From positions 122 through 64,121 of the forward strand of contig CANKMT010000015.1 of the NCBI GenBank assembly GCA_947482825.1: a stretch of DNA of 64,000 nt, in the 5' to 3' direction. Made by a program: the position numbers and the translations under genes. The notes beneath the pieces are model-generated. The model made no database searches and had not been told where the DNA came from. It saw only the letters and a list, made by a program, of their open reading frames with translations. Of the stretch, positions 1 to 52,507 are shown one piece after another. Every line of letters starts with the position of its first letter. Position 1 is the first letter of the stretch. The DNA is from Betaproteobacteria bacterium (lineage in GTDB: Bacteria > Pseudomonadota > Gammaproteobacteria > Burkholderiales > SG8-39).

Positions 1-26
1 GGCGCTCTTTCTGCGGGGGAATTCAT
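1..26 (-). CDS. 5' end of a gene running off the left edge (MNSPAERA...)
   Basis: ATG at 26-24 with AAGGAG RBS (ctcctt at 33-38); same strand as the upstream operon. Confidence 0.5.
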
Positions 27-120: not shown

Positions 121-1587
121 TTACCCGGCCTGCCGTGCCACCGAGACGCCGGGCATCGGCAGCCCGAGCGCAGCGGCGTCGCGCCCGAGCAATTCGACGA
201 AGATTCCGCGGACCTGCCGGTTCGACGCCGTCTTGATGCCGGCGCGGCAATAAGCTTCCTCATTGGCGCTCCCGTCGCCGCCGAACACGCGCAGCGCGTG
301 CGGGTACCAGTGCCCGAGGATCCGGAGACCTGCTTCGCGCACGCTGGGACGATCGAGCCCCTCGAGGCGCGTCAGCCATTGGTTTGCGATGCCCTCTTGG
401 CCTTCGTAGTGGATACCGGACCACACGGCCAGCGGCACGAGGCACGAACCGAACGTGGCGAGCGAGGCCGCTTGCGAGGCGCGCGCGGCGATCCATTGCT
501 GCAGGCAGATGTCGGTCCAGCTCTCGGGTAGCGGTTGCTTGAGGAAGTCGACCTTGTGCTTTCCCCCCGTCAGCGTACGTTCCGCCTCGTCGGCAATCGG
601 GTCCGGATCGACGCCCAGCGCCGAGAGCATCCGCGCAGCATGCAGTCCCGATTTTCGATCGTCCCGGTACTGGATCGCGACCGCGAGTTTTTCCTCGGGT
701 GTCGGCGCGGCAAACACCGCCATTTCGTTCTGCCGCGCATACTTGCTTTGCACCCAGCCGCTGACCACCTTGGCAATCAGCGGGCGGACCTGGGCCGGCA
801 CGTCGCTGGCGTCGAGGTAGAGGCCGGTGCCGGCGAGGCTCTCCTCGGGGTATTCGCGGCGATTGCCTTTCCAGAGCGCGGCGGGCATCTCGAGCGAAAT
901 CTCCTTGAGGTCGCGCTCCAGCGATTTGATCCACAGCAGGCGCGACTGGTTGTTGCTCAGCGTCTTGACACCCAGTTCGAGGTAGCGCTTTTCATTGGAC
1001 GTATCGACGCCGCCGAATATGTCCAGGCACGAGGGGTAGAACTTCTCGATCGCTTTCTGGCATTCCTCGCGACGCCCTTCTGCGACCAGCCTTTTTGCGT
1101 ACTTGTTGCCTTGCGCTGTATGGCCAAGCGCTTCATCGACGTAGTTCTTTGCGTGCCACACCGCCAGCGGAACGTAGCTCGCACCGAGTCCGCCGATCGA
1201 CTGGATGCCGCCGGTGCGCTCGGCGAGCACCCGGGTCATGCTCCGTTCGACCCAGTCTTCCATGCGCATGCGGAAGTAGTCGAGCTTGCGCTCGCCAACG
1301 GTCACCGAACTCTCTGCCTCCTTGATGTAGGGCAGGGGATCGACCCCCATGTCCCGCAGGATCAGCGATACGCCAAGGCCGTGTTCCTTTTCCTGGGCGA
1401 TCTGGAAGTCGACCCACGCTTTGTCCTCGGCGGTGGGGCAGACCGAACCGGAGCGATCCGGGGCATCGGCGTACTCCGACTGGATTTGTACGGTGAGCAT
1501 CTTCACGATGAACTGGCGCACGTCGTCCGGCACTTGCTCGGCGCGCAGGTAGATCTTCCGGTTGGCAACGCGTTCTGGCAGGGACAT
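121..1587 (-). CDS. Tandem PaaA/PaaC-family ferritin-like di-iron protein (aryl-CoA epoxidase-like), two internal repeats
   Basis: Start MSLPERV with AAGGAG RBS. The N-half follows the PaaA motif order: QSE, PT..DK, QEKEHG, W...LAE, SYVPLA, DEALGH, DIFG, KTLSN. The C-half repeats the pattern without metal ligands. Confidence 0.8.
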   Translation of the reverse strand: MSLPERVANRKIYLRAEQVPDDVRQFIVKMLTVQIQSEYADAPDRSGSVCPTAEDKAWVDFQIAQEKEHGLGVSLILRDMGVDPLPYIKEAESSVTVGERKLDYFRMRMEDWVERSMTRVLAERTGGIQSIGGLGASYVPLAVWHAKNYVDEALGHTAQGNKYAKRLVAEGRREECQKAIEKFYPSCLDIFGGVDTSNEKRYLELGVKTLSNNQSRLLWIKSLERDLKEISLEMPAALWKGNRREYPEESLAGTGLYLDASDVPAQVRPLIAKVVSGWVQSKYARQNEMAVFAAPTPEEKLAVAIQYRDDRKSGLHAARMLSALGVDPDPIADEAERTLTGGKHKVDFLKQPLPESWTDICLQQWIAARASQAASLATFGSCLVPLAVWSGIHYEGQEGIANQWLTRLEGLDRPSVREAGLRILGHWYPHALRVFGGDGSANEEAYCRAGIKTASNRQVRGIFVELLGRDAAALGLPMPGVSVARQAG

Positions 1588-1631
1588 GGTTTGCTCCTTC
1601 AATCGAATGTTCAGGCGATTCGCCGGCCAGC

Positions 1632-2411
1632 TTACTTGCCGCGAAACACCGGCTTGCGCTTTTCGAGGATGGCCGCGATTCCTTCTTTCCTGTCCTCGGT
1701 GGTGCGAAGCAGCCCGCCCAAATAGGACTCGAGCCGGATGCCGTCTTCGATCGACAGGTCCGTGCTCTTGATCACCGCCTCCTTGCCGTACTTGAGCGCG
1801 AGCGGGGCCTTGGCCGAGAGCTTCTTGGCCCATTGCCTGGCGGTCGGCAAAAGGTCTGCTGCGGCCACGACCCGGTTCACGAGCCCGATGCGATAGGCCT
1901 CGGCGGCATCGATGCGCTCGCCGAACAGGACCAGTTCCATCGCGCGGCCGAGGCCGGCGAGCCGTGCAATGCGCTGCGTCGCCCCGCCCGCGGGAATCGA
2001 GCCCAGGTTGATTTCGGGCACGGCAAAACTGGCCTCGGGTGCGGCGAGGCGGAAGTCACAAGCCAGCGCCAGTTCGAATCCGCCTCCCAGGGCCATCCCG
2101 TTGACGGCGGCGATGCTGGGCTTGCCGAGCGAAGCGAGCGTCGCCCGGAAGTCTCCCCACCAGCGTGACTCCACCGACTCGATCGGCGGCTCGGTCACGC
2201 TGCCATCCTTGAGGTCCGCGCCCGCGGAGAAAGCGCGCCCGGCGCCGGTGATCAGCAGCACACGCCGGGCAGGATCGTCGCGCGCGGCGAGGAACACGTC
2301 CATCAGCTCTTCGCGACACTTCGCATTGATGGCGTTGAGCTGATCCACGCGGTTCAGCGTGATTTCGACGATGCCCTCTTCTTCCGCGACCAAAAGCGTT
2401 TCATACGTCAT
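1632..2411 (-). CDS. Enoyl-CoA hydratase/isomerase (crotonase)
   Basis: AFSAGADL, GGGFELALACD, PEINLG (both catalytic Glu present), C-terminal EKRKPVF. Confidence 0.93.
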   Translation of the reverse strand: MTYETLLVAEEEGIVEITLNRVDQLNAINAKCREELMDVFLAARDDPARRVLLITGAGRAFSAGADLKDGSVTEPPIESVESRWWGDFRATLASLGKPSIAAVNGMALGGGFELALACDFRLAAPEASFAVPEINLGSIPAGGATQRIARLAGLGRAMELVLFGERIDAAEAYRIGLVNRVVAAADLLPTARQWAKKLSAKAPLALKYGKEAVIKSTDLSIEDGIRLESYLGGLLRTTEDRKEGIAAILEKRKPVFRGK

Positions 2412-2438: not shown

Positions 2439-3998
2439 TCAGCCGGCAGCAACCGCTGTGCCGGAAAACTTCGCCACGAGCGCGCGCTTGTCGACCTTGT
2501 TGGAGCCGTTGCGCGGCAATGCGTCCACAAAAATGATCTGCTTGGGCAGCTTGTAGCTGCTCAGGTGCGTGCGGCAATGCTCGATCAGTTCTCCCTCGAC
2601 AACGCCGGAAGATGCGCGGCGCGCGACGATGGCAGTCACCGCCTCTTCCCAATGCGGATGGGGCAATCCGAACACCGCACAGTCGAGCACGTCGGGGTGG
2701 GCCGCAAGCGCATGCTCGACCTCGGCCGCGTGCACTGTCATGCCGGCCGTCTTGATGACATCCTTGATCCTGCCGGTCAAGAGGAGGGCGCCGTCTTCGC
2801 CCTGGCAACCCAGGTCGCCCGTGTGCAGCCATCCACCGTCCATTGCAATCGCGGTGAGGTCCGGCGCGTTCCAGTAGCCGCTCATCCCGGTCGGCGAGCG
2901 CACCACCACCTCGCCCTCGCCGCGGCCGGGCGGCACGAGCTGGCCGTTTGCGCCGAGGATGCCGATCTCGCTGCCCGGCCACGCGTAACCCACGCAGTTC
3001 GACGGATGCCCGGTGTTCGCAAGGCAATCGTAGGTCGCGATGTTGCTGACCTCGGTCATGCCGTACGTGATCTCGAGCGGCAGTCCGGGAAAGCGGCGAA
3101 AGATTTCGCTTCGGATCGCTTCAGGGAGGAATCCCGCAGTCCAGTGCAGCTTACGCAGCGAGCCGAGATCGACCGGCCGGCGATCCATCGATGCGAAGAG
3201 CCCTTTTGCGGACAGAACGGGGTGCAGGTACAGCCGAGACACCCGATGGCGCGGGACGAGTTCGAGCAGCGAGTCCGGGTCGGTGCGCGTGGGGATGACG
3301 AGCGTGCCGCCTGCCAGCAGCACGGCGAAGGGGCCGGTCAAGGAGCCGCCGGTGTGCGCCATTGGCGCCCGCCCGAGCAGTACGTCGTCGCGTGACAGGC
3401 GTTGCGCAAGCATTGCCAGGCCCCACGCTACGCTGAGGTGGGAGCGGACGACGCCTTTGGGCCGACCGGTGCTTCCGGCCGTGTAGTAAATGGCGCAGGG
3501 CTTGCTGAGGTCCTGCGGCTGATGCATGACCGGTGGAAGGCTGCGATCGACTAGCGCTTCGTAATCTTCGATTCCGCTCCGGGGTGGATCCACGCACACA
3601 ATAAGCATGTCGGGTATCCGTCCGTCGGCGCAAAGCGCTTCCACGGCCGGAAGGTGCTCCGGGTCGGTAATCAAGCACCGGGCCCCGCTGTTATCGACGT
3701 AAAAGTGCAGTTCTTCGAAAGCAGTGCGCGGATTCAGCGGCACGACAACGGCGCCGGCGCGGATGATCGCCCACCAGGCCTCGACGAATCGGGTGCTGTT
3801 CGGCAGCAACAGGACGACCCGGTCGCCCGAGAGGATGCCGAGATCCTGGAGGCCGTTCGCGAGTCGCCCGATCCGGTCCACCAACCGGGTGTACGTCGTC
3901 ACCTCTGCGTCATGGCAGATCGCAGCCTGGGGGCCAAACCGGCGCTCGCCTGCGAGCAGCAGCGATGCGGCATCGAAAGACGGGGGCGGGGTCATCAC
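2439..3998 (-). CDS. Acyl/aryl-CoA ligase (AMP-binding family)
   Basis: YTAGSTGRPKG, YGMTE, WLHTGDLG, GRIKD, LPRNGSNKV. Confidence 0.92.
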   Translation of the reverse strand: MMTPPPSFDAASLLLAGERRFGPQAAICHDAEVTTYTRLVDRIGRLANGLQDLGILSGDRVVLLLPNSTRFVEAWWAIIRAGAVVVPLNPRTAFEELHFYVDNSGARCLITDPEHLPAVEALCADGRIPDMLIVCVDPPRSGIEDYEALVDRSLPPVMHQPQDLSKPCAIYYTAGSTGRPKGVVRSHLSVAWGLAMLAQRLSRDDVLLGRAPMAHTGGSLTGPFAVLLAGGTLVIPTRTDPDSLLELVPRHRVSRLYLHPVLSAKGLFASMDRRPVDLGSLRKLHWTAGFLPEAIRSEIFRRFPGLPLEITYGMTEVSNIATYDCLANTGHPSNCVGYAWPGSEIGILGANGQLVPPGRGEGEVVVRSPTGMSGYWNAPDLTAIAMDGGWLHTGDLGCQGEDGALLLTGRIKDVIKTAGMTVHAAEVEHALAAHPDVLDCAVFGLPHPHWEEAVTAIVARRASSGVVEGELIEHCRTHLSSYKLPKQIIFVDALPRNGSNKVDKRALVAKFSGTAVAAG

Positions 3999-4032: not shown

Positions 4033-4899
4033 TCAGCCGCCGCGCGTCACGGGCTGGGCCCGGAACTGTCTTGCCTTGCCGTTGCTCCGCGCGCCGGGGC
4101 TCTGGGTACGCGCGCCAAGCGCCACCGAGATTCCCTCCGCGCACTCGAGCAGATTGGGCAGGAGCTTTTCCATCCGCTCGTCGGTCAGGCGCTGGGCGGG
4201 GCCGACGATGCCGACGCTTGCAACTACGCGGTCCGTCGCGTCGCGAATCGGAGCGGCCATGCTGCGTGCCCCCGAGTAGATTTCCTGGTTGCTTGTGGCG
4301 TAACCACGCTTGCGGATCTGGGCAAGGTCGCTGCGCAATGCGTCCTTGTCGACCAGGGTGCCTGCGGTAAAGCGGCGCAGCCGGCCCCGCAGGTATTGCT
4401 CCTGGAATTCCGGGTTCATGTGCGCCAGCAGGATCCGGCGCGTGGACCCGCAATGCAGCGGGAAGCTCATGCCGTCGCTCGGAATCACGCGCATCGGCTC
4501 GGGACTTTCAAGCATCTCGAGATAGGTCGCCTGGCTGTCGGTTGGCACGACAAGTACGACGGTTTCGCGCGACATACGCACCAGCAGCTGCATGAAGGGC
4601 AGCGCGGTGTGCCGCAGGTCCAGCGAAAGGCGGATGACGTCGCCAAGCTGCAGCAACCGGGCGCCGAGCATGTAGCTGTCGGTCCCCTCCTTCTGCCTCA
4701 CGACGCCTTTGTCGCGCAGCGTAGCGATCAGCCGATAGGTCGTACTGCGCGGAAAGCCGAGCTCACGCGAGATTTCGTCTACCGTGAGGGACGGCCTTTC
4801 GCGGGTGAAGGCGAAAATCACGTCGATCGCCTTGCCAAGCGACTTGATCGCCTTCTGCCCGGAACTTGCCGCGGGTTTCCTTTGCGCCATGTTTTGCAA
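4033..4899 (-). CDS. IclR-family transcriptional regulator
   Basis: N-terminal HTH (LGFPRSTTYRLIATL) and effector domain (IRKRGYA...SMAAPI). Confidence 0.93.
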   Translation of the reverse strand: MQNMAQRKPAASSGQKAIKSLGKAIDVIFAFTRERPSLTVDEISRELGFPRSTTYRLIATLRDKGVVRQKEGTDSYMLGARLLQLGDVIRLSLDLRHTALPFMQLLVRMSRETVVLVVPTDSQATYLEMLESPEPMRVIPSDGMSFPLHCGSTRRILLAHMNPEFQEQYLRGRLRRFTAGTLVDKDALRSDLAQIRKRGYATSNQEIYSGARSMAAPIRDATDRVVASVGIVGPAQRLTDERMEKLLPNLLECAEGISVALGARTQSPGARSNGKARQFRAQPVTRGG

Positions 4900-5825: not shown

Positions 5826-7220
5826 ATGCCGGATACGTACCTACCCAGGGCCCAGGGCCCGTTTGCAGCGCCGCGGGCGCCGGAGCTGGAGCAGGCCGGA
5901 TTGATGGACGACCTGGTCGCCAAAGCCTGTGTTCTATGCAGCCGACCGAGCGGGCGCAACAACACGCAGCCCGGCTACGGCATGAAGCGGGGCGAGAAAG
6001 TGCTGCTGGGCGTCGACAGTTCGTACGACTGGCGGGTGGTCGAGGCCCTGAAAGCCGCGGCCAACGATCTCGGCGCGAAGATGGACATCATCATGGTCGA
6101 CTCGGGTGGACCGCAGCGCTCCGTCTACCACATCACCGACACGCCGCTCGACGGCGCCGACGAGGCGCGCAGCGTGCAACGCTCGATTGGCACCGACATC
6201 CGGCGCAATCCCTACCTTGTTCGCGAGATTGCGGACAAACACAACTACGACCTCGTGATCAACGGGACCGCCGGTCCGATCCCGGACACGCCCTACCGCT
6301 GGGAGCGTCTGCCGTGGACTTCGGTGGAGCACTGGGCAGGCGACGAGATCACGTTCCCGATCGAGCTGCAGGTCGCCATCGACCAGGTCGTCTGGGAGCA
6401 GATCCAGCGCTGCGTGCGCGTGCGCTTCACCGACCCCGAAGGCACGGACGTCACGTTCAGCAACTACAACGACAGCCGATGGATGTACCAGAGCCACCAG
6501 TGGGGCAAGCCGCTCTACATCACTGCAGAGGAGGACGCGACCGGTGTCATCGCGGGCACGACGAACCATCGTGGCGTGTTCGAATGGTGCGAGGCGCGCG
6601 TCGACGACGGCCTGATCACGTCAGTCAAGGGCGGCGGGGAGTACGGCGAGATCTGGCGCCAGAAGCTCGACGAATTCAAGGACGTCATCATGCCCCCGTA
6701 CCGCACTCGCAAGGTGGCGGGCTCGCGGGAGGTCGCCTGCAAGCACCGACCCGGGTTCTTCTGGTACTGGGAATGTGCGATCGGCACGATGCCGAAAGTC
6801 TTCCGCCCATCGACGGGCCTGTTCGATCTCCTGTACGAGCGCCGCCGCTCAGGCCTCGTCCACCACGGCTTCGGACCGAACAGCGACGAGATCCCGGAGA
6901 TGGCCAAGGCTGGCCTGCCGACCCGGCACGTCCACATCCACAACCTGTTCTCGACCTACGAAGGAACGACCGCCAGCGGCGAGAAGATCGTCGTCATCGA
7001 TCGCGGACGGCTCACCGCATTCGACGATCCCAGGGTGCGGGCGGTCGCCGAAAAGTTCGGCGATCCGGATACGTTGCTGCAGGAAGCATGGATCCCCGCC
7101 ATCCCGGGAATCAATGCCGAAGGCGACTACATGGAGGACTACGCGGGTGATCCGCGCACGCGAGTGCTCGACTGGGCACGCAAGCGCGCGGCCGGGTTTG
7201 TGGACCGGGGGAGGCGATGA
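5826..7220 (+). CDS. Protein of the M29 aminopeptidase / NicX-like fold, function unknown
   Basis: GMKRGEKVLL..D, VRFTDPEGTDVTFS, VDDGLITSVKGG, ECAIG, GLVHHGFG, HVHIH resemble M29/NicX motifs; strong RBS. Confidence 0.55.
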   Translation: MPDTYLPRAQGPFAAPRAPELEQAGLMDDLVAKACVLCSRPSGRNNTQPGYGMKRGEKVLLGVDSSYDWRVVEALKAAANDLGAKMDIIMVDSGGPQRSVYHITDTPLDGADEARSVQRSIGTDIRRNPYLVREIADKHNYDLVINGTAGPIPDTPYRWERLPWTSVEHWAGDEITFPIELQVAIDQVVWEQIQRCVRVRFTDPEGTDVTFSNYNDSRWMYQSHQWGKPLYITAEEDATGVIAGTTNHRGVFEWCEARVDDGLITSVKGGGEYGEIWRQKLDEFKDVIMPPYRTRKVAGSREVACKHRPGFFWYWECAIGTMPKVFRPSTGLFDLLYERRRSGLVHHGFGPNSDEIPEMAKAGLPTRHVHIHNLFSTYEGTTASGEKIVVIDRGRLTAFDDPRVRAVAEKFGDPDTLLQEAWIPAIPGINAEGDYMEDYAGDPRTRVLDWARKRAAGFVDRGRR

Positions 7221-8971: not shown

Positions 8972-10531
8972 GTGAGTTCCGAAACGCCGGCGCCTTCCTA
9001 CTTCGATGCCACGCTGCGTGCCTACGAGGAAAGGCTCGCCAAGGCGCTGGCCATGGGCGGCCCCGCTAAGCTCTCGCGCCGCAAGGAGGCCGGTGTCCTC
9101 AATGCAAGGGAGAGAATCGCCTACCTTTGCGATCCGGGCACGTTCATCGAGTCCGGCCTGTTCGGCACCTCGGGCACTTTCCCTGCAGACCGCGACAAGA
9201 CGCCGGCCGACGGCAAGATTGCAGGCTTCGGCAAGATCAACCAGCGCGAGGCGGGACTGGTTGCCAACGACTTCACCGTAATGGGATCTTCGAGCGGCGC
9301 CACCAATGGCCGCAAGATCGGCCACATGAAGCGCGTGGCCACGCAACGCGGCATCCCGCTCGTCTTCTTGGGCGAATCGTCCGGCGCGCGCATGCCGGAC
9401 ACCATGGGCGCGCGCGGCATGGGTTCTTTGCTCGGGAACGACGGCATGCAATACCAGCGGATGCGCGAGATACCGTGGGCGTCGGCCACGCTGGGATTGT
9501 CCTATGGCTCCTCGTCGTGGTACGCGGCGCTCTCCGATTTCAGCGTGATGAGAAAAGGCGCGGTGCTTGCGGTGTCGAGTCCCCTGCTTGCGTCGCTCGC
9601 CATCGGCGAGAAGGTCGATCCCGAGGAACTCGGCGGCTGGCGCCTGCATTCGGAGGTGACCGGCCTGGCCGACATGGTGGTCGATACGGACGAGCAGGCG
9701 CTCGACGCGATCAAGGTCTTCCTCAGTTACCTGCCCAGCCACCACAACGAGGCACCGCCGGTGCGCGCCGTGCCTGCGGGCTCAGGAGAGGGGATGCGCG
9801 ACATCGTCAACCTGCTGCCGCCGAGCCGCACCCAGGTCTACGACGTGCGCAAGGTCGTGCGCACGCTCGTCGACAAGGACAGTTTTTTCGAGTTGAAGCC
9901 GCGTTTCGGCAAGGTTGGCGTCACCGGCCTGGCGAGGCTCGACGGCCGCACTGTGGGTATCCTCGCGAACAACCCGCTGGTCAAGGGCGGTGCCCTCGAT
10001 ACCGATGCCTGCGAGAAATTCACCAGCTTCCTGGTGCTGTGCGACTCGTTCAACATCCCCATCGTGATGTTCGTCGACACCCCTGGCTTCGTCATCGGCA
10101 CCGATGCCGAGCGTAAACGCGCGCCGGGCAAGATCATGAACATGATGAACGCACTGTCGCTGATGACGGTGCCCAAGCTCTCGGTGATCCTGCGCAAGAC
10201 CTACGGCCAGGCCTATCTCAACATGGGCGGCGGGCGCAATTCGGACGAGGTGGCCGCGTGGCCGACCGCCGAGATCAGCTTCATGGACTCGCGCTTTGCG
10301 GTGAGGGTCGTGCACGGGCTTGAGCCGGGCGAGGCCGGGTTCGACGAGGCGCTCGCGCAGATGGATAGGGAAAACGAAGTCTGGGATGCGGCGTCGATCT
10401 TCGCGGTGCAGTCGGTGATCCGTCCGCACGAGACGCGCGACTACCTGATCCGCATGCTCGAAGTGCACCAATCGCGTTTGACCAAGGAGGTCGGCCAGCA
10501 TTTGATGCGGGCCTGGCCGACGAGTTTCTGA
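8972..10531 (+). CDS. Acyl-CoA carboxyltransferase subunit (copy 1)
   Basis: NARERI, NDFTVMGSS, SSGARM, EELGG, DTPGF, RKTYG, AWPTAE. Confidence 0.9.
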   Translation: MSSETPAPSYFDATLRAYEERLAKALAMGGPAKLSRRKEAGVLNARERIAYLCDPGTFIESGLFGTSGTFPADRDKTPADGKIAGFGKINQREAGLVANDFTVMGSSSGATNGRKIGHMKRVATQRGIPLVFLGESSGARMPDTMGARGMGSLLGNDGMQYQRMREIPWASATLGLSYGSSSWYAALSDFSVMRKGAVLAVSSPLLASLAIGEKVDPEELGGWRLHSEVTGLADMVVDTDEQALDAIKVFLSYLPSHHNEAPPVRAVPAGSGEGMRDIVNLLPPSRTQVYDVRKVVRTLVDKDSFFELKPRFGKVGVTGLARLDGRTVGILANNPLVKGGALDTDACEKFTSFLVLCDSFNIPIVMFVDTPGFVIGTDAERKRAPGKIMNMMNALSLMTVPKLSVILRKTYGQAYLNMGGGRNSDEVAAWPTAEISFMDSRFAVRVVHGLEPGEAGFDEALAQMDRENEVWDAASIFAVQSVIRPHETRDYLIRMLEVHQSRLTKEVGQHLMRAWPTSF

Positions 10532-10548
10532 AGAAAGGGGAAGTGCAT

Positions 10549-10770
10549 ATGGCAAGGCTTGAAGCAAAGACAGACGTGACCGGTTCGGTGTGGAAGATCA
10601 CTACGGTCGTGGGACAGACGCTCGCGCCGGGAGACACCGTGATGTTGATCGAATCGATGAAGATGGAGATTCCGGTGATTGCCGAAGACGGCGGGACGAT
10701 CAAGGAATTCCGCTTCGCGGAGGGCGAATCGATCACCGAAGGCGAGGTCGTGGCGATTCTCGAAGGCTGA
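10549..10770 (+). CDS. Stand-alone biotin carboxyl carrier protein
   Basis: About 73 aa; biotinylation motif IESMKMEIPV. Confidence 0.9.
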   Translation: MARLEAKTDVTGSVWKITTVVGQTLAPGDTVMLIESMKMEIPVIAEDGGTIKEFRFAEGESITEGEVVAILEG

Positions 10771-10783
10771 CCGGGGACCGACC

Positions 10784-12367
10784 ATGAAGGACCAGGCACC
10801 GGATACCGCGCGCAATGCAGAGGTCGCGGAACTCGCGCTGCGTCGCGCCGAGGCGGACAAGCTCGGCGGCGCCGAGTCCGTGGGCAGGCACCACGAGCAG
10901 GGACGGCTGACGATCCGCGAACGGATCGCGGGCGTGGTCGATGCGGGCTCTTTCCAGGAAGTCGGCAAGCTCACGGGGCAGGGGCGTTACACGGACGGCG
11001 TGCTGACCGGCGTTACGCCCGCGCCGTACGTAATGGGTCTCGCCACCATCGACAAGCGGCCGGTCGCAGTGGGTGGCGAAGACTTCACCGTGCGCGGAGG
11101 CATCAGCTGGAGCGGCGAGCGCAAGAAAGGCGGGCAGGGCGGCTTCGTCGAGGATCTCGCCCACCAGTACCGCATCCCGCTGGTGAACCTGATCGACGGC
11201 GCCGGCGGCAGTGTCACGTCGATCCAGCGCCGCGGCTACTCGGTGTTTCCCGGCGTGCACGGGTTCGAGCGTGCGGTCGAGCTGATGGGCGAGGTGCCGG
11301 TCGTCTGCGCGGTGCTTGGCACGGCGGCCGGCGGCCCGGCAGGGCGCGCGATCCTGTCGCACTGGTCGGTGATGGTGAAGGACACGAGCCAGGTTTTTGC
11401 GGCCGGGCCGCCGGTGGTGGAACGGTCGCTCGGCCAGAAGCTGACCAAGGAGGAACTCGGCGGGCCGGCCATCGCGGTGGATATCGCGGGCACGATCGAC
11501 AATGCGGCCGCCACCGAAGCGCAATGCTTCGAAATGATCAGGAACTATCTCAGCTACATGCCGCAAAACGTGTGGGAACTTCCCCCGGTGCTCGACTGCG
11601 GGGACCCAGTGGATCGCTGCGATAACGCGCTGCTGAAGATCGTGCCGGAGAGCCGCCGCCAGCCCTACGACATGAGGAAGCTCGTCCGGATGGTGGTCGA
11701 CCGCGATTCGATGTTCGAGATCCAGCCCACGTACGGCAAGGCCGTGATCACCTGTCTTGCCCGCATGAACGGAAAAGTCGTGGGCGTGATCGCCAACGAT
11801 CCCAAGGTCTATGGCGGCGCGATGGATGCGAGGGCCGCGCGCAAGCAGACCCACTTTGTCGAGTTGTGCGACTGCTTCCATATCCCGCTCATTTTCCTGG
11901 TGGACGTGCCGGGCTTCATGGTGGGCAAGGATGCGGAGGCCGCGGCCACGCTGCGCGAAGGCATGCGCAGCGTCTACGTCGGCTTGCAGGCGACGGTGCC
12001 TATGTATACGGTAGTGATCCGCAAGTGCTATGGGATGGCGGGAATGGGCGCGACCGACAAGAACGGGCTGGACCTGAAGATTGCGTGGCCGACGGCCGAG
12101 TGGGGATCGCTCCCGGTGGAGGGTGGCGTCGCCGCCGCTTTCCGCAGGGATATCCAGGCTGCGGCCGACCCGAAGGCGCGCGAGCAGGAGATTGAAGCCG
12201 AGTTGCGCGCGCTCGCCTCGCCATTCCGGACCGCAGAAGCTTTCGGCGTAGAAGAAATCATCGACCCGCGCGAGACCCGGCCTTATCTTTGCCGGTTCAT
12301 CGATGCGGCGCAGGGCAGGCTGAAGACGACGGTCGGGCGCAAGCCCCGATACGGCGTCCGGCCTTGA
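10784..12367 (+). CDS. Acyl-CoA carboxyltransferase subunit (copy 2)
   Basis: GRLTIRERI, EDFTVRGG, EELGG, DVPGF, RKCYG, AWPTAE, IIDPRETR. Confidence 0.9.
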   Translation: MKDQAPDTARNAEVAELALRRAEADKLGGAESVGRHHEQGRLTIRERIAGVVDAGSFQEVGKLTGQGRYTDGVLTGVTPAPYVMGLATIDKRPVAVGGEDFTVRGGISWSGERKKGGQGGFVEDLAHQYRIPLVNLIDGAGGSVTSIQRRGYSVFPGVHGFERAVELMGEVPVVCAVLGTAAGGPAGRAILSHWSVMVKDTSQVFAAGPPVVERSLGQKLTKEELGGPAIAVDIAGTIDNAAATEAQCFEMIRNYLSYMPQNVWELPPVLDCGDPVDRCDNALLKIVPESRRQPYDMRKLVRMVVDRDSMFEIQPTYGKAVITCLARMNGKVVGVIANDPKVYGGAMDARAARKQTHFVELCDCFHIPLIFLVDVPGFMVGKDAEAAATLREGMRSVYVGLQATVPMYTVVIRKCYGMAGMGATDKNGLDLKIAWPTAEWGSLPVEGGVAAAFRRDIQAAADPKAREQEIEAELRALASPFRTAEAFGVEEIIDPRETRPYLCRFIDAAQGRLKTTVGRKPRYGVRP

Positions 12368-26840: not shown

Positions 26841-27146
26841 ATGGAAAACCCCGTACGCTGGTCGCTGAAGGTCTCGAAGGAAACGGACGACGCCTTGCGC
26901 GCTCACCTCGGCCGCTCCGGCGGCCGCAAAGGCGACCTTTCGAGATTCGTGCAGGAAGCGGTCAAGGCGCGGCTGTTGGAGGAGCAGGGCGAAACCGGGA
27001 AGTCTGCCAAGGTCGTGAAAGCCGGCACCCGGGAAGGACTCGCCGAGGCGCTGGGGGAGATCCGGGCGCGGACGCAGACGCTGTCGAAGGCGCGTTTCGA
27101 AAAGCTGGTAGGCGAGGCCGTGGCTTACGCACGCAAGCGGCGCTGA
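26841..27146 (+). CDS. Ribbon-helix-helix antitoxin
   Basis: VRWSLKVSKETDDALRAHL...KGDLSRFVQEAV; upstream tandem TATGTGTC x2 at 26810-26825. Confidence 0.8.
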   Translation: MENPVRWSLKVSKETDDALRAHLGRSGGRKGDLSRFVQEAVKARLLEEQGETGKSAKVVKAGTREGLAEALGEIRARTQTLSKARFEKLVGEAVAYARKRR

Positions 27147-27149
27147 GCG

Positions 27150-27578
27150 GTGCTCGTCATTGTCGACACCAACGTCCTGTTGAGCGGGTTGCAGGCGGGT
27201 AGCGGACCGCCCGCCAAGATCCTCGACGCCTGGCGCGAGGGACGCTTTCAACTGGTGACGAGCGTTGAACAGATCGAGGAGTTCAGGCGCGCGGCGCGCT
27301 ACCCCAGGCTGCGCCCCTACCTGCCGCGCGGCGCGGTCGGCCGGGTGGTCAACGAATTGCGCAAGGCCGAGGTGCTGCTCGAGCGCCTGCGGCGCGCGGG
27401 CGATGCGCCGGACCCGGGCGACGACTACCTGCTGGCTATGGCGATTGCGGCCGGCGCGGATTATCTTGTCACCGGCGACAAGCCGCTGCTGACTGTACAA
27501 AAAACGGGCCATACAAAGCTCGTTTCTGCGCGTCGTTTTGCGGCTCTGTTGATCGGCCGGACGCCGAAAGACGGATAG
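27150..27578 (+). CDS. Putative PIN-family toxin
   Basis: VIVDTNVLLSGL, DPGDDYLLAMA, DYLVTGDKPLL. Confidence 0.88.
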   Translation: MLVIVDTNVLLSGLQAGSGPPAKILDAWREGRFQLVTSVEQIEEFRRAARYPRLRPYLPRGAVGRVVNELRKAEVLLERLRRAGDAPDPGDDYLLAMAIAAGADYLVTGDKPLLTVQKTGHTKLVSARRFAALLIGRTPKDG

Positions 27579-38009: not shown

Positions 38010-38111
38010 GGTTTCCTCCGAAAATGTGGCCGTTACAGAGTGTGCGTTGCGGCTGCCTTCCGGGCAACACGCGAGTAGACACGGGTGGACAAGGCAGGGC
38101 AGAGTACACAG

Positions 38112-39122
38112 ATGAACCAGGAAACTTCAAGCGCCAGTAACAAGCGAATGCGGACGCTGCGCCACTGCTGGCACCCGGTCGCGTACGCGCATGCAATTAC
38201 GGACGCACCGTGCGCGTCGATGCTGCTCGGTGAGCCTCTCGTGCTTTGGCGCGATGCGAATGGCCGGATCCGCGTGTTGCGCGATGCGTGCGTCCATCGC
38301 GGCACGGCGTTGTCGCTCGGGCGCGTCGAGGCGGGGGAAATCGTCTGCCCCTATCACGGCTGGCGCTACGACACGGAAGGGCGCTGCACGCGGATCCCGC
38401 AACTTCAGGAACCCGGCCGTGTGCCGCCGAAAGCCCGCGTGGATTGCTTTCGCGCACAAGAAAAGCATGGCCTCATCTGGGTCGCGCTGGAAGAACCGCG
38501 CTGGGAGTTGCCGCAGATCCCGGAATTCGAGGACCCGAAATGGAAAGTGGTGCGGACCGGACCGTTTGCCTGGAACTGCGACGCTTCGCGCCAGTTGGAG
38601 AACTTCACCGACTTCGGGCACTTCGCGTTCGTGCATCCGGGCCTGTTGGGTGATCCTGCCAAGCCGGTGGTCGTGCCTTACACGGTCGAGATCGAGGGTC
38701 CTGTCGTGCGCTACAGCTACGGCCGCCCGGACCAGAAGAACACGGACAGTTTTCCGGTGTTCACCGAAGCAGAACGCAAGGACGAACTTCGCCGCACGCG
38801 CTATGCGATTCATCTGCCTTTCACGCTGGTCGAGCATATCGACTGGGGCGATGCGGACGGCCTGGTGTACCTGTTCGTTTCCCAGCCCGTGGACGAGGAC
38901 CATTGCATCGGCTACTGCCTGGTCGCGCGCAACTACAATTTCGACCAGCCCGATGCGGTGATGCAGGAGTTCGAGCGCACGATCTTCGGGCAGGACCAGC
39001 GGATCGTCGAGTCGCAGCGACCCTCCATCGTGCCGTTCGATGCGCAGGCCGAGATGCATTTGAAGTTCGACGCGGTGGCGATGAGCTACCGGCGCGCCAC
39101 GCGCGAGCAGGGGTTGGACTGA
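38112..39122 (+). CDS. Rieske non-heme iron oxygenase alpha subunit (VanA/Ndm demethylase-like)
   Basis: CVHRG...CPYHGW; ENFTDFGHFAFVH; QDQRIVESQ. Confidence 0.88.
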   Translation: MNQETSSASNKRMRTLRHCWHPVAYAHAITDAPCASMLLGEPLVLWRDANGRIRVLRDACVHRGTALSLGRVEAGEIVCPYHGWRYDTEGRCTRIPQLQEPGRVPPKARVDCFRAQEKHGLIWVALEEPRWELPQIPEFEDPKWKVVRTGPFAWNCDASRQLENFTDFGHFAFVHPGLLGDPAKPVVVPYTVEIEGPVVRYSYGRPDQKNTDSFPVFTEAERKDELRRTRYAIHLPFTLVEHIDWGDADGLVYLFVSQPVDEDHCIGYCLVARNYNFDQPDAVMQEFERTIFGQDQRIVESQRPSIVPFDAQAEMHLKFDAVAMSYRRATREQGLD

Positions 39123-39157
39123 GCGCCCGGCCCGGTGACGCGGGCCTGCAGCCGAAA

Positions 39158-39226
39158 CAGGCAATGCTGCCATTTTTTGCCATAGCCCCGCGTGGATATT
39201 GGCTTTCCTGTCGGAATGCTGCCATC
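39158..39226 (-). repeat. Repeat B, 69 bp
   Basis: Reverse complement is 59/69 identical to 50059-50127; ATGGCAGCATT near both ends as a direct repeat. Confidence 0.8.
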
Positions 39227-39256
39227 GCCCAGGTGGCCGATGGAGTCAAGCTACCG

Positions 39257-39321
39257 TAATCCGGTCTAATCCGGTTTATATTCCGGTTTATAATCAGGTC
39301 TAATCCGGTGAATATTCGGGT
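39257..39321. promoter_or_regulatory. Array of six TAATCCGGT-like direct repeats upstream of fic
   Basis: Copies at about 39257, 39267, 39279, 39291, 39301 and 39313. Confidence 0.65.
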
Positions 39322-39324
39322 GCC

Positions 39325-40371
39325 ATGAAGACTGAAACCATCCAAATCACGCCAGAGCTGCTCATCCTGTTGAGCGAACTGGACGAGTTCAAGGGCGCTT
39401 GGCGTGCCCTGGGAACGCTGGCGCCTGAGCGATTGAGTGCGCTGCGGCATGTGGCCACGATCGAAAGCATCGGGTCATCCACCCGCATTGAAGGCAGCAA
39501 GCTAAGCGACCGCGAAGTCGGGCACCTGCTGTCGAGGCTCGAAATCAAGAAATTCGACAGCCGAGACGAACAGGAAGTCGCCGGCTACGCCGAGACCATG
39601 GAAACGGTTTTCCATTCTTTTGCGGACATCCCAGTCACCGAGAACCACCTCAAGCAACTGCACCGGGACCTCCTTCGATACAGCCACAAAGATGAGCGTC
39701 ACCGCGGCGATTACAAAAAACTGCCCAACAACGTCGTTGCTTTCGACGCCGCGGGCAAGATGGTCGGCGCGGTGTTCGAGACGGCCTCGCCGTTTGACAC
39801 CCCGCGCCGAATGAGCGAACTGGTTGCGTGGCTGAGAGATGCGCGGGAAATCGGCAGGCTTCATCCGCTGCTGATAGTGGCGGTGTTCACCGTCACTTTC
39901 CTGGAGATTCATCCCTTCCAGGACGGCAACGGACGCTTGAGTCGTATCTTGACCACGCTATTGCTGCTGCAGGCAGGCTACGCTTATGTGCCCTACAGCT
40001 CGCTGGAAAGCGTCATTGAGCACAGCAAGGAAGGCTATTACCTCGCCTTGCGCCAAACACAACAATCCATTCATAGCGAGGCGCCCGATTGGCAGCCTTG
40101 GCTTATGTTCTTCATGCGGGCTTTGCAGCAACAAAAGCGGCGCCTTGCAGCCAAAGTCGAAAGGGAAAAGGGGGCTTTCGCGACACTGCCCGCGTTGGCC
40201 GTCAAGATATTGGATTACGTTCGCGATCATGGCCGTGTGACATCGCGCGACATGGTTCGCGATTCTGGCGCCAGTCCGAACACGTTGAAGACGATGTTCG
40301 GCGCCTTGGTCAAGAAGGGGTTGCTGGTCCGACATGGTGGCGGTCGCTCAATTTGGTACGGACTTCCCTGA
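39325..40371 (+). CDS. Fic-domain protein (class II) with a C-terminal wHTH
   Basis: HPFQDGNGRLSR catalytic motif; STRIEG inhibitory motif; lower GC than the flanks. Confidence 0.92.
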   Translation: MKTETIQITPELLILLSELDEFKGAWRALGTLAPERLSALRHVATIESIGSSTRIEGSKLSDREVGHLLSRLEIKKFDSRDEQEVAGYAETMETVFHSFADIPVTENHLKQLHRDLLRYSHKDERHRGDYKKLPNNVVAFDAAGKMVGAVFETASPFDTPRRMSELVAWLRDAREIGRLHPLLIVAVFTVTFLEIHPFQDGNGRLSRILTTLLLLQAGYAYVPYSSLESVIEHSKEGYYLALRQTQQSIHSEAPDWQPWLMFFMRALQQQKRRLAAKVEREKGAFATLPALAVKILDYVRDHGRVTSRDMVRDSGASPNTLKTMFGALVKKGLLVRHGGGRSIWYGLP

Positions 40372-40385
40372 CTAAAGTAGGCCCT

Positions 40386-41984
40386 ATGGACCTACCCCCC
40401 GACGAAACCTGCGTGCTCGGTCCCGCCCTGCGGCGCCAGGCGCGCGAGCGCGGCGGCCAGGTGTTCGTGCGCTTTGCCGAAGGCGGCGAATGGACCTATG
40501 CGCAAACCCTCGCGCAGGCCGGACGTTGCGCGGCGGGACTGGCACGTCTCGGCGTCCGGCAAGGCGACCGTGTCTTCGTGTGGCTGCCCAACGGCGCCGA
40601 CATGCTGCGCGTATGGTTCGGCATCAATCTGCTGGGCGCGGTGCTTGTTCCGATCAACACGGCCTACAAAGGAACGTTGCTCGCGCATGTGGCCGCGAGC
40701 TCTGGCGCCACGCTGGCGGTTGTCCACGCAGGATTGGTGTCGCGGTTCGAAACCAGTGGCATCGGCGTGCTCAGGAGGATCGTTGTCTTGGGCGGGAGCG
40801 GCAGTGCCAGAGCGCCCGCAGGCCTCGAGGTTCTCGATCCATCGAGCCTCGACGCCAATCCGGCACCCGAACTGGCCGATATCCGCCCGCGCCCCTGGGA
40901 TCTTCAGGCGCTCGTCTACACTTCAGGCACCACCGGCGCCTCCAAAGGCGTGCTCACGCCGTACTTTCACCTCGCGCAGATGGCTGTCGCCGGGCGCGAG
41001 ATGGTCACCGCCTTGGATCGGCGGCTGGTCAACCTGCCGCTCTTTCATTCCGGCGGACTGCTCGGGGTCTACGGCATGCTGCTGACCGGCGGATCGATCG
41101 CGCTGGCCGAGAGCTTCAACACCGCCACGTTCTGGCGAACGGTGCGCGAAACGCGCTGCACCGTGTGCACGTTGCTAGGCGCGATGGTCGCCTTCCTGAT
41201 GAAGGCCCCGCCGGGCCCCGAGGACCGTGACCACGCGCTGCGCATCGTGTCGTTGGTGCCGTTGCCTAAAGGTGCACAAGCGTTCGCCGAGCGATTCGGC
41301 GTCACGGTCCACACCAACTACAACTCGACCGAAACCAGCAACTGCCTGGTGTCGGGACCGAATCCCACGCGAGCAGGTCTGTGCGGGCGGCCGAGGCCGG
41401 GGGTCGAGGCGCGCCTGGTCGACGCCAACGACTTCGAGGTGCCGACAGACGAGGTGGGCGAACTGGTGTTGCGCACCGCGCTGCCCTGGGCAATGACACC
41501 TGGCTACCAGGATGACGCCGAGGCCACGGCAGTGCTGTGGCGCAACGGTTGGCTGCACACCGGGGACTTGTTCCGGCGCGATCCGAGCGGCGACTACTAT
41601 TTCATCGACCGCGGCAAGGACGCAATCCGCCGCAGGGGGGAGAACATCTCTTCGTACGAAGTCGAGATCGAGTTGCTCGCCCACTCGGGCGTTCGCGAAG
41701 CGGCGGTGGTTGCGGTGGCGAGCGACCTGGGCGAGGACGAAGTGCTGGCGATCGTCGCGCCGCGCCCCGGTGTTCGCATCGACTGCGCGGAGTTGCTCGA
41801 ATTCCTGCGCCCGCGCATGGCGCATTTCATGTTGCCGCGCTACATCCGGGTGGTGGAGGACCTGCCGCGCACCCCGACCCACAAGGTGCAGAAATTCGTT
41901 CTGCGCGCGCTGGGCTGCGCGCCCGGCACCTGGGACCGCGAGGCCGCGGGCATCGTGGTCAAGCGCGAGAAGCTGGAGGGCTGA
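40386..41984 (+). CDS. Acyl-CoA ligase, CaiC (crotonobetaine/carnitine-CoA ligase)-like
   Basis: YTSGTTGASKG, WLHTGD, IRRRGENISSYEVE, LPRTPTHKVQK. Confidence 0.88.
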   Translation: MDLPPDETCVLGPALRRQARERGGQVFVRFAEGGEWTYAQTLAQAGRCAAGLARLGVRQGDRVFVWLPNGADMLRVWFGINLLGAVLVPINTAYKGTLLAHVAASSGATLAVVHAGLVSRFETSGIGVLRRIVVLGGSGSARAPAGLEVLDPSSLDANPAPELADIRPRPWDLQALVYTSGTTGASKGVLTPYFHLAQMAVAGREMVTALDRRLVNLPLFHSGGLLGVYGMLLTGGSIALAESFNTATFWRTVRETRCTVCTLLGAMVAFLMKAPPGPEDRDHALRIVSLVPLPKGAQAFAERFGVTVHTNYNSTETSNCLVSGPNPTRAGLCGRPRPGVEARLVDANDFEVPTDEVGELVLRTALPWAMTPGYQDDAEATAVLWRNGWLHTGDLFRRDPSGDYYFIDRGKDAIRRRGENISSYEVEIELLAHSGVREAAVVAVASDLGEDEVLAIVAPRPGVRIDCAELLEFLRPRMAHFMLPRYIRVVEDLPRTPTHKVQKFVLRALGCAPGTWDREAAGIVVKREKLEG

Positions 41985-41996
41985 GCCCCGCGGGCT

Positions 41997-42473
41997 TCAG
42001 GCAGGCCTTCGCTTGTACATCGAGGTGGCCTCCAGCGTGTGCACCACTTCGCCGCGCTGGTTTACCACCTCGCGCACGAAAGTCACGATGCCCTGGTGCG
42101 GCTTGCTGGTGGTCTTCTTCTCCTTCACCTTCGCCACCACATGGATCGTGTCGCCGTGCTTGACCGGCGCATGCACACGCCACTTGTCCACGCCGAGCAT
42201 CGCGATGATGGTGCCGTCGTTGAGGCCCATCTGGACCAGCAATCCCGCCGCAATCGCGAAGATCAGCGGCCCGTGCGCGATCGGCTCGCCGTAGGGCTGC
42301 TCGCGGCAGTACTCGAAGTCCACGTGCGGCGGGTTGAAGTCGCCCGACAGGCAGGCGAAATTGATGATGTCGGTCTGCGTAATCGTCCGGCGCGGGGAGA
42401 CGAACGTGGCGCCGATCTCGAAGTCCTCGAAATATTTTCCTCGCGGCTCGTAGGCGGGTGCGCTGCTGTTCAT
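41997..42473 (-). CDS. MaoC-family dehydratase
   Basis: YFEDFEIG, SGDFNPPHVD, IAHG. Confidence 0.88.
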   Translation of the reverse strand: MNSSAPAYEPRGKYFEDFEIGATFVSPRRTITQTDIINFACLSGDFNPPHVDFEYCREQPYGEPIAHGPLIFAIAAGLLVQMGLNDGTIIAMLGVDKWRVHAPVKHGDTIHVVAKVKEKKTTSKPHQGIVTFVREVVNQRGEVVHTLEATSMYKRRPA

Positions 42474-48293: not shown

Positions 48294-49080
48294 TTGAACG
48301 AATCCGACATCGAATTCTTCCACACCGACGGTGCTTGCGTTCTGCGCGGGGTGTTCAAGGATTGGGTCGAGCCGCTGCGCACGGGGATCGCACAGAACAG
48401 GGCGGCGCCAAGTCCCTTCGAGCGCTCGGTCAAGCCTGCCGACGGAAGCGCCCCGTTCTTCCAGGACTATTGCAACTGGCAGCGCGTCCCGGAGTTTCGC
48501 GCCTTCGTCATGGAGTCGCCCGCGGCGAGCCTTGCCGCCAAGCTGATGCGCTCGCGCACGGCGCGGTTTTTCCACGACCACGTGTTGGTCAAAGAGCCCG
48601 GCAGCAGCGTCAAGACGCCCTGGCACCAGGACCAGCCCTACTACTGCGTGGAGGGCGCTCAGAGCGTGAGCTTCTGGATCCCGCTGGAACCGGGTGCCGC
48701 GGGACGTGGTGATGGAGTGCGTGGCCGGCTCGCATCGCTGGGGCAAGGACTTCCGGCCGACCCGGTTCGACGGCACGCCGCTGTATGCCCATGACAAGTT
48801 CGAGGTCGCGCCCGATATCGAGGCGCAACGCGGCGAGCTGCGAATCCTCGGCTGGCCGATGGAGCCGGGCGATGCGATCGCCTTTTCGTTTCGCACCATG
48901 CACGGCGCGCCGGCGAACCGCTCCGGGCGGCAGAGGCGCGTGTTCTCGGCGCGTTGGGTCGGCGACGACGCGGTGTTCTGCGATCGCGGGGGGCGCACCT
49001 CGCCGCCCTTCCCGGAGTTGCAGCTCGAGGACGGCGCGCCGCTCGATGCGCCCGAGTTTCCGGTAGTCTTCCGCACATGA
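48294..49080 (+). pseudogene. Phytanoyl-CoA dioxygenase (PhyH)-family enzyme, +1 frameshift near 48692
   Basis: TPWHQDQPYY in the first frame; GSHRWG, MEPGDA, HGA..N..RR in the second; junction CCG-G-GTG. Confidence 0.8.
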
Positions 49081-50060
49081 GCCTCCTCGCAGACACCAAG
49101 GCGTCTCCCCCCGGCGCGCAAACCGGCCCGGTGAGCGATGACAACCCCGTCATCACCCATCGCGCCAAACTGCGGGCCGGGGAACTCAAAACCCTCGCAA
49201 CGCGCTCCGACGCGAAAGCGCTTCCTTGGCTTGCCGGGCATCTCGCGGTGCTGGCCTGCACCGGGACGCTCGTCTGGATGCTGCGCGACAGCCCCTGGGT
49301 CATTCCGGTCCTGGTGGTGCACGGCTACGTCCTGAGCTTCATGTTCTGTCCTTTCCACGAGGCCGCGCACGTCACCGCGTTCCGGTCGCGCTGGCTCAAC
49401 CTGGTCGTGGGGCATTGCGTCGGCTTCACGCTGCTCCTGCCGTACGGCTATTTCCGCAGGTTCCACTGGGATCACCACCGCTATACGCAGGACCCGGAGC
49501 GCGACCCCGAACTGTTCCTGCCCAAACCGGGCAATGCAATTGAATACGCCTGGCACGTGAGCGGCCTGCAGAACTGGAAGCGGCGCATTTCCAACAGCCT
49601 GGAGCACGCCCTTCTGGGACGGGTGCAGCAACCCTGGATCCCCGAAGACAAGCGCCGCGAGGTCGTCCTCGAGGCGCGGCTCTATCTGCTCGCCTACGCG
49701 CTGGCTTTCGCGGGTTCGGTCGCGCTGCAGAGCTGGGCGCTGGTGTGGCTGTGGATCGTGCCCGGCATGATCGGCCAGTTCTTCCTGCGCAGCTACCTGC
49801 TGGCCGAGCACACCGGCTGTGCCCTCAAGAGCGACATGCTCGAGATGACGCGCACCATCCACACCAATCCCCTGGTGCGCTTCTTTGCATGGAACATGCC
49901 GTACCACACCGAGCACCACGCCTATCCTGCGGTGCCGTTCCATGCGCTTCCCGCACTGCATGCCCACCTGAAGCCGAGCCTGGTGCATGAAACGCGTGGC
50001 TACTGGCGCACGCTATCGGTCGACGTGGCTCGAACCTGGCGCCGTTCCGGCGGCACCTGA
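49077..50060 (+). CDS. Fatty acid desaturase-family membrane di-iron enzyme (MocD-like)
   Basis: His boxes HEAAH, HWDHH, EH, HTEHH. Confidence 0.88.
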   Translation: MSLLADTKASPPGAQTGPVSDDNPVITHRAKLRAGELKTLATRSDAKALPWLAGHLAVLACTGTLVWMLRDSPWVIPVLVVHGYVLSFMFCPFHEAAHVTAFRSRWLNLVVGHCVGFTLLLPYGYFRRFHWDHHRYTQDPERDPELFLPKPGNAIEYAWHVSGLQNWKRRISNSLEHALLGRVQQPWIPEDKRREVVLEARLYLLAYALAFAGSVALQSWALVWLWIVPGMIGQFFLRSYLLAEHTGCALKSDMLEMTRTIHTNPLVRFFAWNMPYHTEHHAYPAVPFHALPALHAHLKPSLVHETRGYWRTLSVDVARTWRRSGGT

Positions 50061-50127
50061 TGGCAGCATTTTGCCCGCAAAGCAAATATCCACGCGGGCC
50101 TTGTGCAAAAAATGGCAGCATTGCCTG
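50059..50127 (+). repeat. Repeat B, 69 bp
   Basis: Lies between the convergent desaturase genes; matches 39158-39226 in inverted orientation. Confidence 0.8.
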
Positions 50128-50141
50128 GCCCCGCTCGCAGC

Positions 50142-51035: not shown

Positions 51036-51042
51036 TTCGGGT

Positions 51043-52506: not shown

Positions 52507-52507
52507 T

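Follow-up and report, generated by a model that had tools for sequence, protein, structure and literature searches.

Two systems, PaaABCDE and BoxAB, are the textbook aerobic di-iron attacks on aromatic rings bound to coenzyme A (CoA), and both need helper proteins. In the PaaA–PaaC core of PaaABCDE (PDB 3PW1, 3PVR, 4II4), one partner carries iron ligands and a homologous partner does not, PaaC being the iron-free structural partner of PaaA with the same fold (PMC4498308). BoxB, the benzoyl-CoA 2,3-epoxidase (PDB 3PM5, 3Q1G), oxidises a CoA thioester with a di-iron centre and has no need of a separate structural subunit, and MMOH is a structural homologue of both PaaA and PaaC (PMC4498308). 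Here we describe a gene at the left end of a 64,000-nucleotide stretch of DNA (hereafter the window; contig CANKMT010000015.1 of a Betaproteobacteria bacterium, assembly GCA_947482825.1) that encodes two domains of this kind in one chain of 488 amino acids, P0001. The protein is probably a single-chain alpha-beta oxygenase of the PaaA/PaaC kind that acts on a CoA thioester, in which the N-terminal domain would be the di-iron catalyst and the C-terminal domain its scaffold.

An internal duplication of the protein had been claimed in a sequence-only reading of the window, and it is confirmed by comparison of residues 1–244 with residues 245–488. The two halves are 33% identical over 235 amino acids (BLASTP, E 3e-42), a similarity far beyond chance, whereas the separate PaaA and PaaC chains are 17% identical (PMC4498308). 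All of the paired motifs quoted in that reading are found in the translation. Two of them, PLAVW and FGG, had been taken as pointers to duplication; however, similar motifs are also present in single-domain relatives and are not special to the halves. PF05138 (PaaA_PaaC), the Pfam family shared with PaaA and PaaC, matches the whole protein in two stretches with 43.8 bits (gathering cut-off 28.5), which agrees with the expectation of two profile matches. When the halves are scored in isolation, half 1 reaches 29.5 bits, but half 2 reaches only 15.9 bits and falls below the cut-off. The start codon was placed at the ATG at 1587-1585, which fits the homologues end to end and yields 488 amino acids. 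An alternative ATG is present at 1833 in the same minus-strand open reading frame (ORF), and reading from there overlaps the upstream crotonase gene. A search for homologues gave 75 proteins, 73 of them with PF05138 and one named by its source as from Piscinibacter sakaiensis, and 66 full-length members (470–515 amino acids, query included) were aligned to assess conservation.

The N-terminal half holds a complete set of di-iron ligand residues, E38, E66-x2-H69, E123 and E152-x3-H156, all six of which are invariant in 66/66 members. Thus, the claim that half 1 retains its ligands, with the last pair spaced E-x3-H, stands. These residues correspond to the ligands E42, E72, H75, D126, E155 and H158 of Escherichia coli PaaA (PMC4498308), and they are predicted to form a carboxylate/histidine site for two irons. 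The site is nevertheless remodelled. In place of the PaaA pattern (E, ExxH, D and ExxH, plus Lys68), the fourth ligand is Glu (E123) rather than Asp, the final motif is E-x3-H with Ala three residues before the histidine (H-3), and Lys68 of the PaaA "lysine bridge" is replaced by Gln62, a Gln in all 66 members. BoxB, in contrast to P0001, keeps the Asp and ExxH.

Five of the six ligand positions are lost in the C-terminal half. The counterpart of E38 is K282 (K in 65/66), that of H69 is S313 (mostly W or F in the family), and that of E123 is A368, while a 4-residue deletion removes the E-x3-H motif altogether. The loss had been described as complete, but the counterpart of E66 is still acidic in P0001 (D310; across the 66, E occurs 42 times, D 23 times and A once). 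The Arg of an "AAR" motif had also been read as a replaced ligand. This proved incorrect, as R369 aligns with R124 of half 1, a conserved residue common to both halves. Half 2 is evolving faster than half 1: mean pairwise identity within the family is 57.0% for half 2 versus 74.6% for half 1, half 1 is the more conserved in 2143/2145 pairs, and invariant positions number 23/226 in half 2 versus 86/231 in half 1. The C domain appears to be a decayed copy that has lost metal binding, and it most likely serves as a built-in structural partner, the role that the separate PaaC chain has for PaaA. PaaA is reported to be insoluble when PaaC is absent.

An AlphaFold2 model of P0001, built on 48 sequences, has a predicted local distance difference test score (pLDDT) of 91 and a predicted template modelling score (pTM) of 0.92, the latter of which suggests that the two halves have a defined mutual arrangement. 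The best solved matches found with Foldseek are PaaA chains of PaaAC (E 7e-7), SSO1313 (PDB 4MUD), PaaC chains (E 1.5e-4) and BoxB (E 3e-3). In VIA-align comparisons, the N half (model residues 4–245) aligns with PaaA at Z 24.0, with a root-mean-square deviation of 2.8 Å over 238 aligned residues, and with PaaC and the BoxB core at Z 21.3 and 20.7. BoxB is a single polypeptide of similar length (469 amino acids in this genome), but it aligns with the N half only (BoxB chain residues 91–403) and gives a whole-chain TM of 0.41. The C half (model residues 254–484) aligns with ferritin-like di-iron proteins at Z about 18, and rows for phenol hydroxylase and MMOH score Z about 15. Hence both halves have the fold of the ferritin-like di-iron carboxylate superfamily and only the N half has the ligand motifs, in accord with the proposal that a single chain combines a ferritin-like domain holding the complete ligand set with a second, degenerate one. 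The multicomponent monooxygenases for soluble methane, phenol and toluene likewise combine a catalytic di-iron subunit with an iron-free homologue that shares its fold. However, their subunits are separate and much larger, they use dedicated reductase and regulatory proteins, and their substrates are free hydrocarbons rather than CoA thioesters. The ESM Atlas gave no clue to function, only the protein's own cluster (51 members) and generic ferritin-like clusters.

Homologues of P0001 are publicly named "1,2-phenylacetyl-CoA epoxidase catalytic subunit", and true paaA, paaC and paaE genes exist in the same genome on another contig (C92; the true boxB is on C19). Both observations would fit a canonical PaaA fused to a canonical PaaC that works as a phenylacetyl-CoA epoxidase with PaaB, PaaD and PaaE encoded elsewhere in the genome. 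Such a fusion is very improbable. P0001 scores 46.4 bits against TIGR02156, the PaaA equivalog model with a cut-off of 280, whereas the true PaaA of this genome scores 528 bits. No match of P0001 at E ≤ 1 was obtained with TIGR02158 (PaaC, cut-off 133 bits) or TIGR03225 (BoxB, cut-off 499 bits), and the best score of half 2 against eight PaaC proteins is 21.6 bits (E 0.72). A phmmer search of 1.84 billion representatives gave 101 matches at E ≤ 0.001, and none of the 73 of these that were scanned with NCBIfam reaches the PaaA or PaaC cut-off (best scores 125.6 and 86.4 bits). In a 102-row tree, both halves fall in a 43-row clade (Shimodaira–Hasegawa-like approximate likelihood ratio test, SH-aLRT, 99) that leaves PaaA and PaaC of the same genome outside. 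Grouping half 2 with eight PaaC proteins gives a tree that is 17.6 log-likelihood units worse, yet the approximately unbiased (AU) test does not reject it at 0.05 (p 0.083). The greater identity of the halves compared with PaaA and PaaC and the universal replacement of the bridge Lys68 by Gln62 also speak against a canonical fusion.

Other carriers of the tandem gene point in the same direction. Two of them (G497 and G498) have no PF05138 matches other than those of the two tandem-gene halves, and a third (G499) adds one weak match of 19.7 bits. The PaaE model TIGR02160 has no match at E ≤ 1e-20 in these three genomes, whose completeness is not known and in which PaaB and PaaD were not searched genome-wide. 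Independence from canonical PaaA and PaaC, as the sequence-only reading had argued, is therefore well supported by the profile scores and the best trees. The public label on these proteins of about 490 amino acids is unjustified, which offers a lesson for annotation. A literature search, with supplements outside its scope, found no paper describing a fused or tandem protein of the PaaA/PaaC type, and the words "fused", "fusion" and "tandem" are absent from the accessible part of PMC13186573.

How the two halves came together is a separate matter. The best trees pair them as sisters: in a 42-row tree under LG+C20 with support of 92/90, and again in a 60-row tree to which eight PaaA and eight PaaC proteins were added (SH-aLRT 96), with the PaaA and PaaC clades outside. 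Sister halves had been named in advance as a sign of duplication, and this topology was obtained. However, no alternative placement of half 2 is rejected by AU tests at 0.05, including groupings with degenerate "beta-like" relatives (p 0.353 and 0.319) and with one PaaC (p 0.211). In sequence scores, half 2 is closest to half 1 (146 bits), followed by single-domain catalytic relatives (102), degenerate relatives (73), PaaA (38) and PaaC (21.6).

A different history would be the fusion of two older, already diverged genes of the same non-canonical clade, one for a catalytic alpha and one for a degenerate beta protein, with function as proposed above. Although we consider this unlikely, both a split and a fused form of such a pair exist. 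At one locus of another Burkholderiales genome (L028; G112:C25, 6941-9677), a 376-amino-acid ORF without a family is followed by a gene for a degenerate 256-amino-acid protein and, 15 bases on, by a gene for a fully liganded 275-amino-acid catalytic protein. The pair sits between a ligase and crotonase(s), with a TctC binding protein after them. The start of the degenerate protein is identical to that of P0145, and it has no Pfam match at E ≤ 1e-4. P0079, a chain of 489 amino acids, carries the degenerate domain first and the catalytic domain second. The AU values for the beta-like groupings are compatible with a fused older pair. Against this history stand the sister relationship in the best trees, the drop from 146 bits (half 1) and 102 bits (single-domain alphas) to only 73 bits with the beta-like proteins, and the domain order, which is alpha-beta in P0001 but beta-alpha in both the split pair and P0079. 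The AU tests reject neither alternative grouping, and duplication within the gene is only favoured, by the trees and scores, over fusion of an older alpha/beta pair. If so, the family would be a clean natural example of a homodimer-like enzyme becoming a catalytic/scaffold pair, with split, fused and order-swapped versions for comparison.

The nearest relatives of the N half are single-domain proteins (P0080, P0082, P0083, P0084 and P0087) that are about 36–38% identical to it. The single-domain PaaA-like proteins P0080–P0087 share the clade signature with P0001, namely a Glu fourth ligand and D-E-G-x-x-H, and are also found beside ligase or CoA-transferase genes. They differ from P0001 in having one domain of about 250–280 amino acids. 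One, similar to P0080, stands alone (L026), adjoining a family III CoA-transferase, a nitrilase-type hydrolase and a ligase, whereas another has the degenerate partner gene upstream at L028. None of the single-domain relatives is characterised; SSO1313, also a single-domain PaaA-like protein, is a structural-genomics entry. In a 102-row alignment, the Glu fourth ligand and D-E-[A/G]-x-x-H are present in every catalytic member of the clade, namely 15 N halves and eight single-domain or C-terminal catalytic domains. Glu occupies H-3 in PaaA, in BoxB and in each of the 56 relatives outside the clade, and most of these proteins have Asp as the fourth ligand.

The shift in the carboxylate register relative to every relative outside the clade, along with the lack of a linked reductase, could mean that the N-domain site is no longer a redox-active di-iron centre, and that the protein instead binds, scaffolds or hydrolyses CoA esters without redox chemistry. 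This is improbable. The six ligand-type residues are invariant in 66/66 family members and D-E-[AG]-x-x-H is kept in 8/8 single-domain catalytic relatives, which argues for a working site under selection. In addition, positions i and i+4 lie on the same face of a helix.

The tandem gene is read in the same direction as the three genes that precede it, those for an IclR-family regulator, a ligase and a crotonase (Table 1). The gaps are 27 bases between ligase and crotonase and 44 bases between crotonase and tandem gene. This arrangement recalls PaaA and PaaC, which are likewise encoded with a CoA ligase and crotonase-type enzymes, and BoxB, whose partners include a crotonase-family enzyme and an aldehyde dehydrogenase. 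A reductase had been sought to the left of the gene, but the contig ends 121 bases beyond the window on that side, and the gene that starts there, 95 bases after the tandem gene stop, encodes a probable cupin. A paralogue of this cupin elsewhere in the genome (C30:227-760) is 71% identical and encodes a 177-amino-acid Cupin_2 protein. It follows a TauD paralogue, and the regions upstream of both cupin copies are similar. L026 also has a cupin, 38% identical, at a distance of about 5.6 kb from its single-domain protein.

Table 1. Coordinates of the tandem gene, its parts and the neighbouring features in the window
Feature	Position	Strand	Basis and remarks
Tandem PaaA-like protein gene	121..1587	-	ORF and translation; 488 amino acids (P0001); PF05138 in two stretches; homologues mostly 470-515 amino acids
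N-terminal half, putative catalytic di-iron domain	856..1587	-	Residues 1-244; six ligand residues invariant in 66/66; structural match to PaaA
N-half ligand codons	E38 1476-1474; E66 1392-1390; H69 1383-1381; E123 1221-1219; E152 1134-1132; H156 1122-1120	-	
C-terminal half, degenerate ferritin-like domain, taken as a structural "beta" module	124..855	-	Residues 245-488; 33% identical to N half; 5/6 ligand positions gone
Ribosome-binding site GAAGGAG	1594..1600	-	6 bases before the ATG; read from the sequence
Crotonase-type enoyl-CoA hydratase	1632..2411	-	PF00378, 216.8 bits; nearest solved relative 3-hydroxypropionyl-CoA dehydratase 5zai, E 1.4e-65
AMP-forming acyl-CoA ligase, first enzyme of the operon	2439..3998	-	PF00501 and PF13193; nearest solved relative feruloyl-CoA synthetase 8wev, E 1.1e-72
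IclR-family regulator, heads the operon	4033..4899	-	PF01614 and PF09339; also precedes the ligase in L003, L004, L006, L007 and L008
Start of a probable small cupin gene	1..26	-	AAGGAG and ATG at 26; leaves the window; contig ends after 49 codons

Gene context was compared in the ten related loci that reach far enough upstream. A ligase is encoded upstream of the tandem gene in all ten, and a crotonase gene lies between the two in nine. In the remaining locus (L008), no crotonase is present and a MaoC hydratase gene directly follows the tandem gene. The proposed CoA-thioester substrate fits the invariable ligase neighbour. This ligase is of the FadD/feruloyl type, unlike PaaK of the phenylacetyl-CoA pathway, and the crotonase scores 217 bits with the PaaF model and 172 bits with the PaaG model, both under the cut-off. 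In the Polynucleobacter loci (L009, L010 and L011), genes for an aldehyde dehydrogenase, a MaoC-like protein and a hotdog thioesterase are found downstream, with MarR and TctC genes upstream. The proteins of this genome are 67–69% (crotonase) and about 60% (tandem protein) identical to those of Polynucleobacter, while the ligase is only 44–46% identical. The Polynucleobacter aldehyde dehydrogenase and MaoC protein were considered as a "split PaaZ", an idea that was discarded: the best models for the dehydrogenase are betaine-aldehyde or generic ones, and the MaoC match to PaaZ is weak (29–64 bits, cut-off 563).

From these data a three-step pathway can be proposed. The upstream ligase would convert a carboxylic acid to its CoA thioester. 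The reduced di-iron centre of the N domain would then activate O2 and oxidise the acyl part. Finally, the crotonase, or the MaoC hydratase in one relative, would hydrate the product, which in Polynucleobacter the aldehyde dehydrogenase might carry further. The electron donor would have to be one other than PaaE and one without a gene next to the tandem gene. If the protein is such an oxygenase, epoxidation or hydroxylation of an aromatic or unsaturated ring, like that by PaaA and BoxB, is the leading suggestion for the second step, although a tentative one. Desaturation or hydroxylation of an aliphatic or alicyclic acyl-CoA would be less likely, and the remainder falls to other chemistry.

Several observations weigh against the proposed oxygenase. 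The crotonase resembles an ordinary short-chain hydratase and can be swapped for a MaoC hydratase, as at L008, which suits simple enoyl-CoA hydration no less than epoxide/oxepin chemistry. The aldehyde dehydrogenase of Polynucleobacter does not belong to the PaaZ type, and its MaoC protein matches the PaaZ C domain only weakly (the 29–64 bits noted above). The Ala at H-3 in the final E-x3-H motif departs from the Glu of PaaA, BoxB and all 56 relatives outside the clade. Finally, no reductase, ferredoxin, PaaB or PaaD gene was found beside the tandem gene in the examined loci or recognised in a survey of the 64-kb window, which leaves the oxygenase cycle without an electron source on paper. The PaaE gene is likewise missing nearby (window and L002-L012), in contrast to PaaABCDE, and there is no linked BoxA-type reductase as for BoxB.

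The generic nature of the hydratase also bears on a second explanation, in which the protein is an O2-dependent acyl-CoA desaturase or beta-hydroxylase that replaces acyl-CoA dehydrogenase in a short module resembling beta-oxidation (ligase, oxidant and hydratase) for a non-aromatic acid. The operon indeed lacks an acyl-CoA dehydrogenase gene, and the soluble ferritin-like di-iron desaturases share the fold class. The missing reductase lends this idea no support, since a desaturase needs an external reductant too. Moreover, PaaA and BoxB, the only characterised relatives on the branch, are arene epoxidases, the nearest solved relative of the ligase is a feruloyl-CoA synthetase, and the regulators, IclR (PcaR/PobR-like, 151 bits) and MarR, are of kinds common in aromatic-acid catabolism. 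We regard a desaturase as possible but unlikely, and the PaaA/PaaC-like oxygenase as the probable function.

If that function is correct, such chemistry would be at its simplest in a compact chain that has its own scaffold domain and is found in small freshwater genomes in which no Paa helpers are seen. The chain would lend itself to structural and mechanistic studies and might open the way to an undescribed catabolic route. A bolder and more doubtful extension is that the clade constitutes a third CoA-dependent aerobic oxygenase system beside Paa and Box, with a single chain, a remodelled site (Glu for Asp, E-x3-H), no PaaB, PaaD or PaaE, and electrons drawn from a general cellular donor or from the substrate. 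The combination of a catalytic domain and a dead copy would then have arisen more than once, as alpha-beta here, as split beta and alpha in G112, and as beta-alpha in P0079. A search for longer fused forms that include a redox partner among 7998 candidates gave none at E ≤ 1e-5, which is weak evidence.

The tandem gene is rare. Among 400 other genomes sampled from the same order, a single one has any match at E ≤ 1e-30, and that match is the split pair; among 300 genomes sampled around G499, six are carriers, and they added no further gene context. A metagenome scan with an alignment of three sequences gave one locus. No tblastn match was found in 72,556 plasmid records. The genome studied here has a second copy of the operon (L002; G000:C109:1175-2620) that is about 88% identical. 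A related genome also carries two (L003 and L005), so the doubling of the entire operon seems genuine and not a product of assembly. The stretch also turns up in lake and freshwater metagenomes. Three metatranscriptome libraries, each of a different study (X16, X17 and X18), contain contigs that match it at 699-885, 1356-1749, 1884-2034 and 2203-2384 with 0–2 differences, the first of these spanning the boundary between the two halves. These contigs cover the tandem gene and the crotonase gene in part only, and the uncovered parts are uninformative. These matches show presence in RNA libraries, which falls short of proof of transcription.

Several other features of the window may be recorded. 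Divergent from the IclR gene is an operon in which a gene at 5826-7220 (+), between those for a short-chain dehydrogenase/reductase and a TauD-type dioxygenase, encodes a 464-amino-acid protein that has no Pfam or NCBIfam match and is 94–98% identical in L003 and L004. Downstream of a GntR/FCD regulator, at 8972-12367 (+), are two carboxyltransferase genes in succession (PF01039, methylmalonyl-CoA decarboxylase alpha-like), and no biotin carrier or carboxylase was noticed beside them. The ribbon-helix-helix and PIN-domain pair at 26841-27578 (+) probably forms a toxin-antitoxin module, and another PIN-domain gene stands alone at 61900-62328 (-). At 48954-52533, two membrane fatty-acid-desaturase-family genes on opposite strands adjoin a flavin-dependent monooxygenase-like gene. 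A Rieske/VanA-type oxygenase, a 631-amino-acid AMP-ligase and a MaoC hydratase are clustered at 38085-42473 and appear to form a further CoA-linked catabolic module. At least four genes for TctC-family binding proteins are also found in the window.

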